Below are positions 1,958 to 35,490 of a stretch of 64,000 nucleotides of DNA, one piece after another. How positions within the stretch are numbered: the first letter of the stretch is position 1; each line of letters starts with the position of its first letter. The notes beneath the pieces were generated by a model. It worked only from the letters and a program-made list of their open reading frames with translations, was not told the DNA's origin and did no database searches. Where the stretch lies: contig JBFXGO010000001.1 in the NCBI GenBank assembly GCA_050239825.1, positions 64,001 to 128,000 of the forward strand, read 5' to 3'. The translations under genes were made by a program, and so were the position numbers. Source of the DNA: a bacterium (GTDB taxonomy: Bacteria; Hydrothermota; 32-111).

Positions 1958-3820
1958 GTGAAAAAAGTTATTTTCATTATCATTATTATTGTTTCAGCAT
2001 TGTTTATTTTTGCTTCAAATGAGAGAGCATTCAGAGAAGAGGATATGCTTCTTGTTAACTTTGAACAACCTGAAGATTACAATCAACCCAATTGGGCGAC
2101 AGATAGTTTGAATGTAAGGGGAGTAGGGAAATATGATACACCGGGTTATGCATTGGGTGTCTATGTTTCAGGAGATTATGCCTATGTTGGTGATTATGAT
2201 TATGGTTTACAGATAATAGATATCTCAAATCCTTCAAGCCCAACCCTTAAAGGTAGCTATGTTACACCGAGTTATGCAAGGGGTGTCTATGTTTCAGGCA
2301 GTTATGCTTATGTTGCTGATGAGGATTCTGGTTTACAGATAATAGATATCTCAAATCCTTCAAGCCCAACCCTTGCAGGGAGCTATGATACACCGGGTTA
2401 TGCTTATGATGTCTATGTTTCAGGCAGTTATGCCTATGTTGCTGATGTTAATTATGGTTTACAGATAATAGATATCTCAAATCCGAAAAGCCCAACCCTT
2501 GCAGGGAGCTATGATACGGATTGTGCATTGGGAGTCTATGTATCAGGCAGTTATGCCTATGTTGCTGATGATGATTGTGGTTTACAGATAATAGATATCT
2601 CAAATCCTTCAAGCCCAACCCTTGCAGGAAGCTATGATACACCGGGTTATGCTTATGATGTCTATGTTTCAGGCAGTTATGCCTATGTTGCTGATGGTAG
2701 TTCTGGTTTACAGATAATAGATATCTCAAATCCGAAAAGCCCAACCCTTGCAGGTAGCTATGATACATCGGGGAGGGCTTATGGTGTCTATGTTTCAGGC
2801 AGTTATGCCTATGTTGCTGATGAGGGTGATGGTTTACAGATAATAGATATCTCAAATCCTTCAAGCCCAACCCTTGCAGGAAGCTATGATACACCGGGTC
2901 GTGCATTGGGTGTCTATATTTCAGGCGATTATGCCTATGTTGCTGATTATAGCGCATTATATATTTTAGAGTTTGTTCCCGACACTACTTTTCCAAGCGC
3001 ATTTAACCTCATCTCACCGATAGGCAATATAACAGATGACACACCCACATACCTATGGAATAAATCTTATGATGATTATTTTTCCAATTACAAACTCTAT
3101 GTAAACGACACATTGAAAGCGACGATAACAGATACGACATGGACTCAACCGGCGGGACTGACAGATGGCCAGTATGTGTGGTATGTAATTGCATCTGACT
3201 CTGCAGGCAACACAACACAATCAACGCAGAGAGATACATTCTATCTTGATGCAGTTTTACCTACACCACCTGTACTTTTGAGCCCTGCGAATGGCACTAA
3301 TGAAACAGTGCTGAACGCACTAATCTGGAGGAAGTCGACAGATGCGTATCCCGGAATAAGCGGATATAAGGTACAGATAGATGAGGACTCACTCTTTGGA
3401 AGCCCGGACAGTGTATTGACAGCTGACACGAGCTATACACCTGTGTTAACGGAGGGGAGATACTATTGGCGTGTGAAGGCGATAAACCTGTTCAGCCATG
3501 AGAGCGAATGGAGTGCGATGTGGAGCTTTGTTTATGACACTAATCCTACAGGAATAGCAGAGAAGTATCTTGATGAGAAGAGGGTAATACCTGATAGGAC
3601 TGAAGTGATAGTGACAATGACTGAGGTCAGATACACGAATACTGCAATGGAGAACATTTTTGCGGTTTATGACATCACGGGCAATGTTATGCATAGCGAA
3701 GTGAACATCAGGACAGGCAAGCACAGCTACTCAACAGAACACCTTTCATCAGGCATATACTTCATAAGATTCAGAGATGGAGAGGCACAGATAAACAGAA
3801 AGATGGTGATAATAAGGTAG
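1958..3820 (+). CDS. Secreted LVIVD-repeat beta-propeller protein with Ig/Fn3-like domains and T9SS-type C-terminal sorting domain
   Basis: Signal peptide; 7 repeats of about 42 aa (YDTPG..VYVSGSYAYVAD..GLQIIDISNP); C-terminus YDITG...LSSGIYFIR...KMVIIR. Confidence 0.85.
   Translation: MKKVIFIIIIIVSALFIFASNERAFREEDMLLVNFEQPEDYNQPNWATDSLNVRGVGKYDTPGYALGVYVSGDYAYVGDYDYGLQIIDISNPSSPTLKGSYVTPSYARGVYVSGSYAYVADEDSGLQIIDISNPSSPTLAGSYDTPGYAYDVYVSGSYAYVADVNYGLQIIDISNPKSPTLAGSYDTDCALGVYVSGSYAYVADDDCGLQIIDISNPSSPTLAGSYDTPGYAYDVYVSGSYAYVADGSSGLQIIDISNPKSPTLAGSYDTSGRAYGVYVSGSYAYVADEGDGLQIIDISNPSSPTLAGSYDTPGRALGVYISGDYAYVADYSALYILEFVPDTTFPSAFNLISPIGNITDDTPTYLWNKSYDDYFSNYKLYVNDTLKATITDTTWTQPAGLTDGQYVWYVIASDSAGNTTQSTQRDTFYLDAVLPTPPVLLSPANGTNETVLNALIWRKSTDAYPGISGYKVQIDEDSLFGSPDSVLTADTSYTPVLTEGRYYWRVKAINLFSHESEWSAMWSFVYDTNPTGIAEKYLDEKRVIPDRTEVIVTMTEVRYTNTAMENIFAVYDITGNVMHSEVNIRTGKHSYSTEHLSSGIYFIRFRDGEAQINRKMVIIR
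2132..2972 (+). repeat. Intragenic ~126-bp tandem repeat (7 LVIVD units, last one partial)
   Basis: Near-identical DNA blocks, e.g. ggtttacagataatagatatctcaaatcc recurs every 123-126 nt. Confidence 0.95.
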
Positions 3821-10071: not shown

Positions 10072-10632
10072 ATGAAAATCGGCTTAACGGCTCTTGTTCT
10101 TGCAATTGTGTTTTATGTTGTTTATCTTTTCAACAAGCTTGTAAGGCAGAAGAATTTTGTTAAAGAGGCATGGAGCGGCATCGATGTTCAACTAAAGAGG
10201 CGATATAGTCTAATACCAAATCTTGTGGAGACAGTCAGAGCATACACAAAGTATGAGGGTACTGTTCTTGAAGAGATTACAAAGATTCGGCAGAAGTGCG
10301 TAGATGCTTCAAATGTAAAGGAGCAGAGCGAAGCGGAGGTGATGCTGTCATCCGGATTCAAACAGTTCTTCGCTCTTGCCGAGGCGTATCCCGACCTTAA
10401 AGCGAACAGCCAGTTTATAAACCTGCAGAAGAATCTTATTGAAATAGAGGATGCAATACAATATGCACGAAGATATTACAATGGCACTGTGAGGGATTTT
10501 AACATACTCACAGAATCGTTTCCTTCAAATATTATTGCATTATTGTTCAATTATAAAAGCAAAGATTACTTTGAAATTACTTCCTCGACAGAAAGGGAGA
10601 ATGTTTCAGCGGATGTAAAAGCGGGTAATTGA
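10072..10632 (+). CDS. lemA: LemA family protein
   Basis: AWSGIDVQLKRRYSLIPNLVETV, AEAYPDLKAN, ARRYYN..V..FN....FPSNIIA. Confidence 0.93.
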   Translation: MKIGLTALVLAIVFYVVYLFNKLVRQKNFVKEAWSGIDVQLKRRYSLIPNLVETVRAYTKYEGTVLEEITKIRQKCVDASNVKEQSEAEVMLSSGFKQFFALAEAYPDLKANSQFINLQKNLIEIEDAIQYARRYYNGTVRDFNILTESFPSNIIALLFNYKSKDYFEITSSTERENVSADVKAGN

Positions 10633-10810
10633 GAAGGTACGTTCTTCTTCTGATATTTGCTTCAGTTTTTCTTTTCTGTCAGGATTCACAGGATAGTTTG
10701 TCATTGCAGGAAGAGAGAATTACATCCTTCCTGTCCGATGTGGTAATAAGAGAGGACGGAGTGCTTGAGGTAACCGAAACAATACGAGTTTACGAGGCGG
10801 AGGATGGTGA
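10629..10810 (+). pseudogene. DUF2207-like membrane protein with a large internal deletion
   Basis: N-terminus ERITSFLSDVVIREDGVLEVTETIRV, in the usual position after lemA, is joined out of frame to GGC GGA GGA TGG TGA (GGGW*), the typical DUF2207 C-terminus. Confidence 0.65.
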
Positions 10811-10816
10811 GATGGT

Positions 10817-11960
10817 AAGACAAAATCTTACTCAACAGTGTCACCCTGAACTATTCAGTAGTTATGACTATCGTGAAGGGTCTATCAGTTTATTGTTAAT
10901 TGATTATTGAAGATTGAGCTGGGGCTACACGCGGGTGTAGCGTCGGCTCACACACTCCGCTTCGCCGCTTTATCAAGATGGGATAGCGGAGCAAGGGGAC
11001 AACCACTTGATGGGCGTCTGCGCAGAGCGTCCTCGCCGACTTGTAGCTTTCGTGTATCAATAAGTTATTTAATTGATTGAATCTTCACAAAGCATTGGCG
11101 CGGGTGTAATGTGCGCGAACGCACATGATAGACGCTTCGGGTTGCACCAGAACTTTGTGAAAATTATTGAAAAGGCAAAATCTTAATCAAAAGCTATCCC
11201 TAGTTCAAAATCACTAGTCGCAAATCAAGAAATATGAGGGGGCTGATGAATAGCATAGCGTCGGCTCGCACACTCCGCTTCGCCGCTTAATCAAAAGCTA
11301 TCCCTAGTCCAAAATCACTAGTCGCAAATCAAGAAATATGAGGAGGCTGATGAATAGCGTAGCGTCGGCTCGCACACTCCGCTTCGCCGCTTAATCAAGA
11401 TGGGTTAGCGGAGCAAGGGGAGAACCACTTGATGGGCGTCTGCGCGGAGCGTCCTCGCCGACTTGTAGCTTTCACTTTCAATAAGTTAATTAATTGATTG
11501 TCCTCATGAGAAGCATTGAAAAGACGAGCGCTGTGGACAGGCTTCTCATTCGGAATTGTAAAGACAAAATCTTACTCAACAGTGTCACCCTGAACTATTC
11601 AGTAGTTATGACTATCGTGAAGGGTCTATCAGTTTATTGTTAATTGATTATTGAAGATTGAGCTGGGGCTACACGCGGGTGTAGCGTCGGCTCACACACT
11701 CCGCTTCGCCGCTTAATCAAGATGGGATAGCGGAGCAAGGGGAGAACCACTTGATGGGCGTCTTCGCGGAGCGTCCTCGCCGACTTGTAGCTTACGTGTA
11801 TCAATAAGTTAATTAATTGATTGTCCTCATGAGAAGCATTGAAAAGACGAGCGCTGTGGACAGGCTTCTCATTCGGAACTGTAAAGACAAGTCATTTAAT
11901 CATCTGTCCTATTGTATTTAAACTCGCAACCCGTAACTAGAAATGGAATTATCTATCAGT
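10817..11960. repeat. Mosaic palindromic repeat array I (111-bp core at 10937, 11359, 11681; partial at 11255)
   Basis: Core gtagcgtcggctc..cactccgcttcgccgc..atcaagatggg..agcggagcaagg..ccacttgatgggcgtc..gagcgtcctcgccgacttgtagc; 10817-~11080 recurs 744 bp downstream; 104-bp tandem duplication inside. Confidence 0.95.
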
Positions 11961-12089: not shown

Positions 12090-12252
12090 TAAGTTATATG
12101 AATTATGAAGGTTACGGGAAATTAGTAAAAAAAGCGAAAAAATTATACTATATAAATATATATAAACACAGACAAAAGGATATAAACTGATGTTTAGCTA
12201 TTTTGAATCATCGTTAATTGAAAAGATCACAAATCTCAAGAAAGGAGGCACT

Positions 12253-12369
12253 ATGCCAACGAAAAAAGAGTGCACATGCGGATGCAAGACAGCGAAGAAA
12301 GCTGCAACGAAAAAAGCAGCAGCAAAGAAGACTGTAAAGAAAGCAGTCAAAAAGACCGCAAAGAAGTAA
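12253..12369 (+). CDS. 38-aa Lys/Ala-rich histone H1-like small protein with CxCxC
   Basis: MPTKKECTCGCKTAKKAATKKAAAKKTVKKAVKKTAKK*; strong RBS AAAGGAGG; own promoter and downstream hairpin; below ORF-track cutoff. Confidence 0.8.
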   Translation: MPTKKECTCGCKTAKKAATKKAAAKKTVKKAVKKTAKK

Positions 12370-34315: not shown

Positions 34316-34339
34316 GAAAAGATTATTATTTGTTATTCG

Positions 34340-35370
34340 CTGATGGCAGGCGTAGCGTCGGCTCGCACACTCCGCTTCGCCGCTTTATCAAGATGGGATA
34401 GCGGAGCAAGGAGAGAACCACTTGATGGGCGTCTGCGCGGAGCGTCCTCGCCGACTTGTAGCTTTCACTTTCAATAAGTTAATTAATTGAATGAATCTTC
34501 TAAAACCATTGGCGCGGGTGTAATGTGCGCGAACGTCCATGATAGAAAGAACGGGTTGCACCAGAAGTTTTAGAAGATTACTGAAAAGACTAAATATTAA
34601 TCAACTCCCCGTATTAAGCTCATGGCACACGGCACACGGCTCAGGGCTGATTTAGTGGCTGCACGCGGGCATAGCATCGGCTCGCACACTCCGCTTCGCC
34701 GCTATATCAAGATGGGATAGCGGAGCAAGGGGAGAACCACTTGATGGGCGTCTGCGCGGAGCGTCCTCGCCGACTTGTAGCTTTCACTTTCAATAAGTTA
34801 TTTAATTGATTGAATCTTCTAAAACCATTGGCGCGGGTGTAATGTGCGCGAACGTCCATGATAGAGGTATCGGGTTGCACCAGAAGTTTTAGAAGATTAC
34901 TGTAAAGAATAAATATTAATCAGCTCCACGTATTGTATTTAAACTCGCAACTCGTAACCCGTAACTCGAAACTGAATTATCTTTTAATATTGATGACTGC
35001 ACTGGAATTTTTCCTCGGAACTGTAAAGGCAAGTCATTTACTCATCTCTCCGTATTTTGCTCATGGCACATGGCTCAAGGCTCAGGGCTGATTTTGGGGG
35101 CTGCTGGCAGGCGTGCGTCAGCTCACACACTCCGCTTCGCCGCTTTATCAAGATGGGATAGCGGAGCAAGGGGTCGCCCACTTGATGGGCGTCTTCGCGG
35201 AGCGTCCTCGCCGACTTGTAGCTTTCACTTTCAATAAGAACCTGTTGTGGGGACACACCGAAGGAATGTCCCCAAACATTGAATAGCAGTGCGGAGATGC
35301 ACTGGAATTTTTCCTCGGAACTGTAAAGCCAAGTCATTTACTTAATTCTCCGTATTATGTTTAAACTCGT
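34340..35370. repeat. Mosaic palindromic repeat array II (core copies at 34352, 34671, 35113)
   Basis: Same 110-111-bp core and AT-rich linkers as array I, same orientation; 86-bp module at 34494 and 34813; heptamer runs (ggcacac; ctcgtaa). Confidence 0.95.
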
Positions 35371-35490
35371 ATTCAGCACCTCTTTGCCTTTTAACCTTTT
35401 TACTTTTTTTACCCAGTACATATTATATTGTAATTGTAATTTAGAGACATTATCTATTGACTCTGATTCATTTTATTGTAAAATTAAAAT

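Follow-up and report, generated by a model that had tools for sequence, protein, structure and literature searches.

Module A, an 86-nt hairpin element found three times in the window (the whole 64,000-nt stretch of DNA analyzed here), is probably one of three exchangeable CATTG hairpin cassettes in a genus-specific, non-coding mosaic repeat that forms intergenic arrays. The family is best read as a new mosaic repeat, limited to this lineage, of the general type of REP, BIME and BOX elements. It behaves as a population of DNA elements, with high copy number, restriction to one genus, gain and loss of arrays and mosaic copies, and the pairing of its hairpins has been maintained through changes on both sides. 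Compensatory changes and a "hypervariable" patch can arise from recombining hairpin repeats, selfish or semi-domesticated, rather than from an RNA gene, and comparing the linkage of paired arms with that of nearer unpaired blocks offers a simple check. The arrays reshape the DNA between genes, one gene having been lost at an array, and the family breaks the genome assembly at many contig ends.

Module A in the window

A 19-mer of the module matched exactly three sites in the window at up to three mismatches, against an expectation of 0.01. These are as follows.

11080-11165, + strand: module A copy 1; closing stem of type CACAAAG/CTTTGTG with one C.A mismatch; score 110.8 bits
34494-34579, + strand: module A copy 2; closing stem CTAAAAC/GTTTTAG; pentamer AAGAA
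34813-34898, + strand: module A copy 3; matches copy 2 apart from the pentamer, GGTAT

The original prediction had placed three copies at these positions, and all three were confirmed. It had also described compensatory changes in the closing stem, which we recovered (AATCTTCACAAAG/CTTTGTGAAAATT in copy 1 and AATCTTCTAAAAC/GTTTTAGAAGATT in copies 2 and 3); three pairs are altered on both sides between copy 1 and the other two, in addition to the C.A mismatch of copy 1. The variable pentamers lie between GATAGA and CGGG as described, that of copy 1 being CGCTT, and copies 2 and 3 differ over 86 nt at four of the five pentamer bases and nowhere else. The inner hairpin of copy 1 is ATGTGCG-CGAA-CGCACAT, and that of copies 2 and 3 is chimeric and mismatched (GTG...TCC). 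The two strands of the proposed inner stem, GGTGTAAT and GTTGCACC, are present and do need two U.G pairs on the + strand, but the 8-bp helix that they would form is one possible pairing.

The proposal of a free-standing 86-nt module did not hold. The 5' arm is missing from 23 of 64 copies, and 65 of 66 matches lie at a fixed place inside composite arrays. The repeated unit goes on for ~160 nt on the upstream side and ~25 nt on the downstream side (mean identity of 88% per column across 342 columns), so the 86 nt is a sub-module. A MITE was also considered and rejected: the 13-bp closing stem could represent terminal inverted repeats, but the same two counts, of missing arms and of fixed placement within units, speak against it, and no duplication was found at the tgt junction.

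A composite unit in intergenic arrays

Module A is the second hairpin of a composite non-coding unit and not a free-standing gene. The unit recurs at a spacing of about 290-440 nt and consists, in order, of a GTAG-tagged core hairpin of ~100 nt, an AT-rich linker, one CATTG hairpin (A, B or D), a tail (YTGTAAAGA...TTAATCA) and a spacer of one of a few types. The window holds two arrays of such units, with the following parts besides module A.

10629-10910, + strand: 93-aa ORF, N-terminal remnant of a gene 515 aa long in the congener G002
10917-11960, + strand: array 1, whole, four core matches; between the remnant ORF and a downstream 59-aa ORF and cyclase gene
10937-11079, + strand: core hairpin and AT-rich linker, unit 1 of array 1; unpaired GTAG-C tag, then nested helices
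11255-11297, + strand: truncated core, array 1 (model positions 2-43), within a 104-nt duplicated filler (family D7)
11359-11500, + strand: core and linker, array 1
11501-11560, + strand: module B, array 1; alternative CATTG hairpin TCCTCATGAGAAG-CATTG...CTTCTCATTCGGA in the slot used by module A elsewhere
11681-11823, + strand: core and linker, array 1
11824-11883, + strand: second copy of module B, array 1; 99% identity to the first
34335-35400, + strand: array 2, whole, three units; between the tgt stop (34315) and a promoter-like site (35457-35484) of the dCache gene
34352-34493, + strand: core and linker, array 2
34671-34812, + strand: core and linker, array 2
35115-35238, + strand: core, last unit of array 2
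35249-35273, + strand: hairpin C, array 2; small palindrome GGGGACACACCGAAGGAATGTCCCC
35287-35314, + strand: inner hairpin and T-run of module D, array 2; terminator-like, CAGTGCGGAGATGCACTG GAATTTTTCC

In the whole genome carrying the window (G000), the family amounts to 124 core matches and 64 module A copies (64 by the covariance model as well) in 45 intergenic arrays of 1-6 units each, which together cover ~39.5 kb, or ~1.9% of the 2.1-Mb assembly, a small genome from an uncultured lineage. Judged by the core matches, all units run head to tail in 44 of the 45 arrays. For 35 arrays an ORF was placed on each side, and both window arrays lie between ORFs. Module A begins 1-4 nt after the core-linker segment in 38 matches and 21-25 nt after it in 18. 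The core has at its 5' foot an unpaired (G/A)TAG-C directly before the stem GTCGGC, with T2, A3 and G4 conserved at 90% or more over 113 cores, and the nested helices that follow are GTCGGC/GCCGAC, CTCCGC/GCGGAG, CGCC/GGCG and ATCAAG/CTTGAT. This REP-like tag is a feature of the core and is absent from module A.

Units are assembled from these parts in many combinations, with heads A, B, D or C joined to A, B or D, and with alternative spacers. Hairpin C takes the place of the 5' arm in the 23 armless copies of module A and does the same in B and D modules; in other units it is located in the core apex. Among the 41 two-armed copies of module A, five are chimeric or mismatched. The blocks are joined at fixed short junction motifs (CATTG, CGGGTTG, TAATCA and GGGGACA). 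Contig depth in one public run was ~23 in the flanks and climbed into the thousands within the repeats, and the contigs of three DNA runs break in the repeats, where they carry the summed depth and mixed variants of many copies; none bridges the array.

At gathering thresholds, Rfam returned three tRNAs and nothing else for the whole window, and at E up to 10 it gave only weak, chance-level matches of 13-20 bits in the two array regions. A self-cleaving ribozyme carried by the tandem units, as in satellite or retrozyme-like repeats, is extremely unlikely. Nothing speaks for it except that the units stand in tandem, head to tail, and that junction nucleotides (GATAGA, CGGGTTG) are conserved, whereas no ribozyme family was among the matches in the array regions, one third of module A copies lack an arm, and in congeners the cassette between CATTG and CGGGTTG is swapped for unrelated sequence. 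A CRISPR-associated transposon or tracrRNA, suggested by gene sizes, was discarded when Pfam gave ordinary housekeeping and signaling genes. Scanning a contig collection with a 16-base core pattern produced 120 single chance matches in GC-rich genomes, the pattern being too short and GC-rich to be informative.

Base-pairing, covariation and linkage

The original prediction held that selection acts on structure. This stands for the closing stem and for a 7-bp inner hairpin, but not for the 8-bp helix with G.U pairs. Among 74 aligned sequences drawn from three species, both sides have changed in 9 of the 13 pairs of the closing stem and in 4 of the 7 pairs of the inner hairpin, counts that reflect few independent events (two closing-stem types within G000 and about four across species) and an alignment by covariance model, which leans towards its own model. 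The observed covariation was reached in none of 500 shuffles, and slid controls collapsed. One further closing-stem form, AGATTTTCAAAC/GTTTGAAAATCT, was found at five loci, all in G001. Pairing in the core rod has likewise been kept through changes on both sides; the folding z of the core (-0.13) is uninformative for such a GC-rich sequence.

Linkage within module A peaks between the paired arms (r2 of 0.87 at 69 nt and 0.68 at 12 nt), with all unpaired block pairs at 0.03-0.55, and for most block pairs three or four of the four possible combinations are present. Module A copies are clearly a repeat population that recombines.

In the 8-bp helix, no pair has changed on both sides, and 18 of the 66 rows scored leave its fifth pair open. 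Two other pairings compete with this helix, the 7-bp inner hairpin and a TTGG/CCAR helix (97.8% paired), and it is missing from centroid folds. The G.U pairs had been taken as a sign of a + strand RNA. We do not retain this argument: the wobble helix lacks covariation, and the - strand folds better (z of -4.5 to -5.7, against -2.5 to -2.8 for the + strand). The leading strand, on which the arrays lie, is rich in G and T and favors G.T anyway.

These data bear on the main rival, a multicopy structured RNA family in which module A would be an RNA domain and the pentamer loop would give each copy its own target, ligand or partner. Changes on both sides in the closing stem, inner hairpin and core rod are what such a family would show, as is the strongest linkage between paired arms. 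We nevertheless regard it as unlikely. More than a third of copies would lack the 5' arm of the domain, five of those with both arms would be chimeric or mismatched, and two of the three copies in the window have a mismatched inner hairpin; the better folding of the - strand and the failure to match Rfam point the same way.

The pentamer

The pentamer had been proposed to be either a free loop or a guide- or anticodon-like specificity element. It is indeed the most variable patch, as would suit an RNA with copy-specific partners: its column entropies are 0.9-1.9 bits, those of the hairpin loop are 0.3-1.0 bits, and in the AGAA junction none exceeds the 0.3-bit threshold for listing. A weakly constrained bulge or loop fits these values; guide- or anticodon-like behavior does not emerge. 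Only 16 pentamers occur in the 64 copies, and they fall into three classes linked to the stem and hairpin haplotypes of subfamilies; the commonest, GGTAT (19), AAGAA (12) and CGCCT (10), account for 41 copies. Five nucleotides are also too short to specify a target alone.

The suggested correlation with flanking sequence amounted to a weak one with the downstream spacer (permutation p 0.03) and no more; the effects of head type (p 0.07) and array position were weak. Neighboring units carry like pentamer classes in 8 of 22 cases versus 32% expected, and with this chance-level sharing we dropped local tandem duplication as the source of arrays. Pairing of the pentamer with the other hypervariable patch, GGC-NNN-GG, was also rejected, there being no association (r2 0.11). 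The pattern fits a weakly constrained bulge or loop whose classes mark subfamilies, and it does not look like a targeting code.

Array orientation and transcription

Where arrays lie between co-directional genes, 15 run along the gene direction and one against it, a bias that would also be expected of an RNA family. Array orientation agrees with the sign of the local GC skew in 39 of 45 arrays. As genes and skew agree nearly everywhere and discordant loci are few, transcription and replication are inseparable as the cause of this orientation. Of the 45 arrays, 22 contain the module D motif, with 27 occurrences in all, each on the array sense strand. Co-orientation with genes and a terminator-like hairpin in half of the arrays suggest that the arrays are probably transcribed with the upstream operon. 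If they act at all, they would probably do so as 3'-end hairpins in termination or mRNA protection. Neither window array has a sigma-70-like promoter site inside its units, a result that counts against independent RNA genes, with the caveat that the promoter type of this lineage may differ.

The skew bias also accords with a reading in which a host protein recognizes the arrays as duplex or cruciform DNA (nucleoid, gyrase or IHF-type binding, or replication or segregation signals), the symmetry of the hairpins being that of protein-binding palindromes. BIMEs bind IHF, gyrase and Pol I, and in the present arrays GC-rich palindromes alternate regularly with AT-rich linkers that carry a repeated TTAATTGATT motif. 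We hold this to be very unlikely. Stems change their sequence wholly between subfamilies with pairing kept, which argues against sequence-specific recognition of a duplex, and units that strictly follow head to tail, with a T-run on just one side of module D, point to strand-specific reading.

Distribution and turnover among relatives

A DNA search of 40 relatives found the family in G000 and in both of its congeners, and in none of the 38 others. The covariance model gave 64, 7 and 4 matches in the three congeneric genomes and none in 16 other genomes of the class. Copies are more alike within a genome than between species.

At the site of array 2, G002 has tgt followed 65 nt later by the dCache ortholog (81% identity), and the array is missing; comparison of the tgt junction in G000 and G002 yielded no definable target-site duplication and no clean empty/filled pair. 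After LemA, G002 has the 515-aa gene; in G000 a match of 33 aa to this gene survives in front of array 1, which starts a few bases past the remnant ORF. Array 1 sits where a gene was lost, and arrays have been gained and lost between species. Among the congener loci examined, six lie at the same site as an array in G000, at least three (L008, L015 and L018) have none nearby, and the others are ambiguous. The six shared sites and the strongly kept pairing would also fit a host function, and persistence at the same site in two species is compatible with an RNA family, but restriction to one genus and absence from syntenic sites in a congener count against such a family.

RAYT-like transposases and a model for spread

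G000 encodes four Y1 genes that match best, among NCBIfam models, the one for REP-associated tyrosine transposases (57-73 bits). All four have inverted repeats of their own on either side, TAGGGACGG... or AGCGGCGGGG..., which are also found elsewhere as singlets and as inverted doublets of ~210 nt; neither the core nor module A flanks any of the four genes. One Y1 repeat type has 14 copies; 12 do not flank its Y1 gene, and 10 of these are found on the array strand, either within an array or at its 5' edge. Relatives without the repeat family also have similar Y1 genes (four matches in G003 and one in G006), and the link to the transposases is therefore circumstantial. An IS605 omega-RNA was considered and dropped, the TnpB-type nuclease domain PF07282 exceeding its cut-off in none of five genomes.

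For the mosaic repeat that we favor, the spread and homogenization of copies may come from recombination between them, short-patch conversion or template switching, and RAYT-like Y1 (HUH) transposases may act on single-stranded hairpin DNA. Pentamer classes would be carried along by conversion as subfamily markers.

A more elaborate version invokes an undescribed exchange of single-strand hairpin cassettes by RAYT/TIRYT-like Y1 enzymes, creating combinatorial structured 3'-UTR RNAs at 45 loci that tune operon transcripts. Hairpin C, the inner cassette and even the 5-nt patch would be swapped at the fixed junction motifs. We give this little credence; if true, variants of module A, pentamer included, would tune the fate of different operon transcripts.

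Comparison with known repeat families

BIMEs are bacterial interspersed mosaic elements of Enterobacteria built from REP sequences. Our family resembles them in forming extragenic clusters that combine a tagged palindrome with a few other conserved motifs in many ways, mostly between unidirectional or convergent genes, in a genome with Y1 (RAYT-type) genes. It differs in the size of the tagged palindrome (~100 nt, not 20-40 bp) and of the unit (~290-440 nt), in its strict head-to-tail order where BIME palindromes alternate in orientation, and in having Y1 genes flanked by another repeat and not by the core.

BOX elements of Streptococcus pneumoniae have the structure boxA-boxB(n)-boxC, as one composite element. 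A few alternative sub-elements, hairpins, intergenic location and high copy number are common to both families; there is no sequence relation, and here composite units with exchangeable second hairpins are arrayed 1-6 times at 45 loci. NIMEs (neisserial intergenic mosaic elements) and Correia elements are arrays of repeat blocks with short conserved motifs and dRS3-like inverted repeats. The present arrays are likewise intergenic, lineage-specific, composed of repeat blocks bounded by short motifs and mosaic by recombination, but their boundaries are short direct junctions (CATTG, CGGGTTG, TAATCA) instead of inverted dRS3-like repeats, and every block is itself a hairpin with covariation.

A REP is an imperfect palindrome of 20-40 bp with an unpaired GTAG or CGTC tag at one end, and its cognate RAYT gene lies between inverted copies (PMC3733652). 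The core has such a tag, its TAG being conserved at 90% or more as in GTAG-tagged REPs (PMC3733652); module A has none. Module A (86 nt) and the core (~100 nt) are too large for a REP, and only hairpin C (25 nt) is in range. Unlike in REPINs, inverted doublets are not the main form, 44 of 45 arrays being head to tail. As in REPIN/RAYT and TIRtron/TIRYT systems, there are four RAYT-like genes, each with flanking inverted repeats, and hairpin C begins with GGGGACAC, which fits the GGGGWSAS motif reported for TIRYT repeats (PMC3733652). Module A and the core differ from the repeats of those systems in that they flank no Y1 gene and form no inverted doublets; the link consists of adjacency (10 of 12 copies) and the motif only. 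This physical tie to RAYT-like genes and their repeats makes the family a tractable case in which to ask how REP-like families arise and how mosaic clusters form outside Proteobacteria.

Composite repeat units and their position in the window

The original prediction described three copies of an 86-nt element, here called module A. Their positions, all on the + strand, were borne out:

Copies of module A in the window
11080-11165, + strand, copy 1
34494-34579, + strand, copy 2
34813-34898, + strand, copy 3

A 19-mer of the module, allowed up to three mismatches, matched these three places alone (0.01 expected). The strings GGTGTAAT and GTTGCACC, both versions of the closing stem with their three doubly changed pairs, and the pentamers CGCTT, AAGAA and GGTAT are present as described, and copies 2 and 3 differ in the pentamer only.

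The 86 nt are a portion of a larger repeated unit. When the surroundings were aligned, similarity extended from approximately 160 nt upstream to approximately 25 nt downstream of the module, and a repeat finder located six window copies of a GC-rich core of 124 nt (10940, 11362, 11684, 34355, 34674 and 35115), followed by module A or by module B, an alternative hairpin present at 11478 and 11801. The unit is built as follows:

Parts of the composite unit, in order
Part 1, core: a (G/A)TAG-C tag left unpaired, followed by nested helices that form a rod (GTCGGC/GCCGAC, CTCCGC/GCGGAG, CGCC/GGCG and ATCAAG/CTTGAT)
Part 2, AT-rich linker: TCAATAAGTTAATTAATTGATTG
Part 3, one 'CATTG' hairpin: module A, B or D
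Part 4, tail: YTGTAAAGA...TTAATCA
Part 5, spacer: one out of a few kinds, some with heptamer microsatellites

Modules A, B and D follow one plan, in which a 5' arm, CATTG and an inner hairpin are succeeded by a 3' arm; their arm sequences are very unlike. Module D carries a terminator-like hairpin and T-run, a motif found 27 times, in 22 of the 45 arrays of the source genome and on the sense strand every time. A 25-nt palindrome, hairpin C, can take the place of the 5' arm in modules A, B and D, or else occupies the core apex, and the final unit of each array has a characteristic end piece.

Hairpin C (GGGGACACACCGWAGGAATGTCCCC; window copy 35249-35273) occurs in approximately 53 copies, 44 of them inside arrays. 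Outside arrays it adjoins tRNA-like 3' ends (C7:59640, C7:59803 and C27:45379 of the source genome), where its 5' arm seemingly overlaps the end of the acceptor stem, which hints at the origin of the palindrome. The spacer microsatellites, (GGCWCAN) in two to four copies and (CYCGNAA) in two to five, vary in copy number among units and lie at 34610-34650, 35050-35090, 34935-34975 and 11915-11945. A 104-nt piece, tandemly duplicated at 11182-11389 with 97% identity, combines the initial 43 nt of a core with a filler that contains a small CTAGT/ACTAG hairpin, the junction being TAATCA.

Both window arrays are intergenic. Array 1 (10917-11960) is downstream of a histidine kinase / sigma-54 activator / LemA operon, and array 2 (34335-35400) is between tgt and a dCache gene. 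Directly after array 1 is a 59-aa Lys/Ala-rich ORF (12190-12369) with KKAAxKK-type repeats and a GC hairpin past its stop; its product is possibly a small basic protein that binds DNA or RNA. Elsewhere in the window, the ORF at 1958-3820 encodes LVIVD beta-propeller repeats, corresponding to a 126-nt repeat present seven times in frame (2016-3068), and a T9SS sorting domain.

Conserved pairing in module A

The structural constraint on module A is real. A covariance model (CM) was built from the three window copies, and 74 matches from three species were aligned to it. In this alignment, which is biased towards its own model, changes on both sides affect 9 of the 13 pairs in the closing stem and 4 of the 7 in the inner hairpin, and 92.7% of cells are paired. 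None of 500 shuffles attained any of five covariation measures, and sliding the partner by one to three columns reduced pairing to 30-50%. The number of independent covariation events is small because the forms are few. Within the source genome the closing stem has only two, CACAAAG/CTTTGTG (26 copies) and CTAAAAC/GTTTTAG (9 copies), with 5 of 41 two-armed copies chimeric or mismatched; congeners add AGATTTTCAAAC/GTTTGAAAATCT and CGCAAAG/CTTTGCG. At least five paired versions of the inner hairpin occur.

Linkage among alternative blocks of the 64 source-genome copies served as a check independent of the tree. The two closing-stem arms, 69 nt apart, have an r2 of 0.87 and the two inner-hairpin arms 0.68, vs 0.03-0.55 for all unpaired block pairs, even those 10-12 nt apart. 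For most block pairs at least three of the four possible combinations were seen, so the copies recombine and complementarity is nonetheless retained. In the core rod, 14 of 22 pairs are changed on both sides and 97.6% are paired, the covariation coming from a divergent subfamily with entire helices rewritten (GCTCAT/ATGAGC, TCAGCC/GGCTGA and GGCAGC/GCTGCC).

Selection on structure, as originally proposed, is thus supported for the closing stem and inner hairpin but not for the 8-bp inner helix, in which no pair is changed on both sides and the fifth pair fails to form in 18 rows. That helix overlaps the inner hairpin, and a rival TTGG/CCAR helix, 97.8% paired, is favored by the folding program. 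The G.U pairs taken as a sign of a + strand RNA are a weak argument, as the - strand folds better in all three copies (z-scores of -4.5 to -5.7 vs -2.5 to -2.8 for the + strand). In sense orientation the arrays lie on the leading strand, rich in G and T (GC skew +0.06, AT skew -0.04; orientation agrees with local skew in 39 of 45 arrays), a composition that by itself yields G.T rather than A.C mismatches.

Variation of the pentamer

The pentamer is the most variable patch of module A (column entropies 1.71, 1.22, 1.88, 1.02 and 0.91 bits), comparable entropy occurring elsewhere only in a single column of the GGC-NNN-GG patch. It is not copy-specific: 16 forms occur in 64 copies (GGTAT 19, AAGAA 12, CGCCT 10, AAAAA 6, the rest 1-3 each). 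This sharing of forms, which sort into three classes following subfamily blocks, does not support a guide- or anticodon-like role. The A-rich class goes with the GTTTTAG arm, the GGA...TCC hairpin and GTACC (r2 0.4-0.55). Among the 61 of 64 copies that could be parsed, pentamer class was weakly related to the downstream spacer (p 0.03) and not significantly to head type (p 0.07), and neighboring units shared a class in 8 of 22 cases, vs 32% expected. Since the classes are tied to subfamily haplotypes, the pentamer-only difference of copies 2 and 3 is most readily explained by a short patch carried between subfamilies by conversion or template switching; their mismatched inner hairpin (GTG...TCC) is a putative second such patch.

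Distribution, gain and loss of arrays

The source assembly (2.1 Mb, 67 contigs, 40% G+C) gave 124 matches in a core profile search, 108 of them near full length. These cores group into 45 arrays of one to six units, mostly spaced 288-420 nt and head-to-tail at all but one locus. A module A profile gave 66 matches, 64 of them usable, and the CM likewise gave 64; 65 of the 66 are within arrays, starting 1-4 nt or 21-25 nt past the core-linker. Arrays account for approximately 1.9% of the assembly and array sequence lies at the ends of many contigs; in a public DNA run, the summed depth of contigs is approximately 23 in flanks and reaches thousands inside repeats. By DNA search the family is present in both other species of the genus and was not found in 38 further relatives. 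The CM matched 64, 7 and 4 times in the three congeners (source genome included) and not at all in 16 other genomes of the class.

In the congener G002, whose Tgt is 88% identical, the dCache ortholog (81% identity) with its promoter-like TTGACT lies just 65 nt past tgt, vs 1.18 kb of array at this junction in the source genome. LemA is followed in G002 by a 515-aa gene. Its remnant in the source genome is a 33-aa match (73% identity) within a 93-aa ORF (window 10629-10910), an N-terminal remnant; the rest of the gene is gone, and array 1 starts a few bases on. Among the congener loci compared, six (L005, L006, L012, L013, L017 and L019) have a source-genome array at the same site with differing unit numbers, and at least three (L008, L015 and L018) have none nearby; others are ambiguous, the matching site being at a contig end (L011 and L014) or several kb off an array. 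Copies are 90-97% identical inside the source genome and approximately 70-85% across species, and one closing-stem form occurs at five loci, all in the congener G001. This pattern indicates homogenization or recent spread within each genome.

Orientation of the arrays

With both flanks known for 35 arrays, 15 run along co-directional genes and one against; the other 19 are in divergent or convergent gaps, which carry no information on orientation. The source genome has a strong GC skew (approximately +/-0.1) and gene-strand bias (1409 co-directional vs 325 opposed neighboring ORF pairs), and co-transcription and replication-strand-dependent insertion therefore fit the bias equally well. Genes in the 64-kb window are nearly all on the + strand.

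Y1 transposases and comparison with known repeats

Four source-genome genes encode an IS200-type Y1 domain, some with a C-terminal HTH:

Y1 genes of the source genome (loci L032 and L046-L048)
C14:64115-64453, Y1 gene
C5:4741-5079, Y1 gene
C56:11573-11872, Y1 gene
C18:43162-43449, Y1 gene

Their top NCBIfam match is the REP-associated tyrosine transposase model, at 57-73 bits, below the cut-off of 80 bits. Each has inverted repeats of its own on both sides (TAGGGACGGTGGTT..., TAGGGACGGAGTATGG..., AGCGGCGGGGGGTGAAAA...), which elsewhere in the genome form singlets and inverted doublets approximately 210 nt apart. Repeats of the C5 gene's type number 14, and 10 of the 12 non-flanking ones are within arrays or at the 5' edge of one, on the array strand. 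Di Nocera et al. (PMC3733652) describe a GTAG tag for REPs and a GGGGWSAS motif for TIRYT repeats, which the TAG tag of the core and hairpin C (GGGGACAC), respectively, recall. Y1 transposases are a possible driver of the family. A direct link is disfavored, since neither the core nor module A flanks any of the four genes and Y1-type genes also occur in relatives without the family. No TnpB-type domain was found.

Module A is best read as one sub-module within a lineage-specific family of mosaic hairpin repeats and not as a guide-bearing RNA gene; the arrays may additionally act at operon ends as RNA hairpins useful to the host. Among the papers listed by a full-text search on Stahlbacteria / WOR-3, none concerns such repeats, judged by title or abstract. 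Mosaic extragenic repeats of other bacteria include BIME, NIME and BOX. From these, and from the REP/TIR families (PMC3733652), the family differs in lacking several defining features of each (size, orientation, transposase-gene flanking, solitary insertion), and it resembles all of them in its working.
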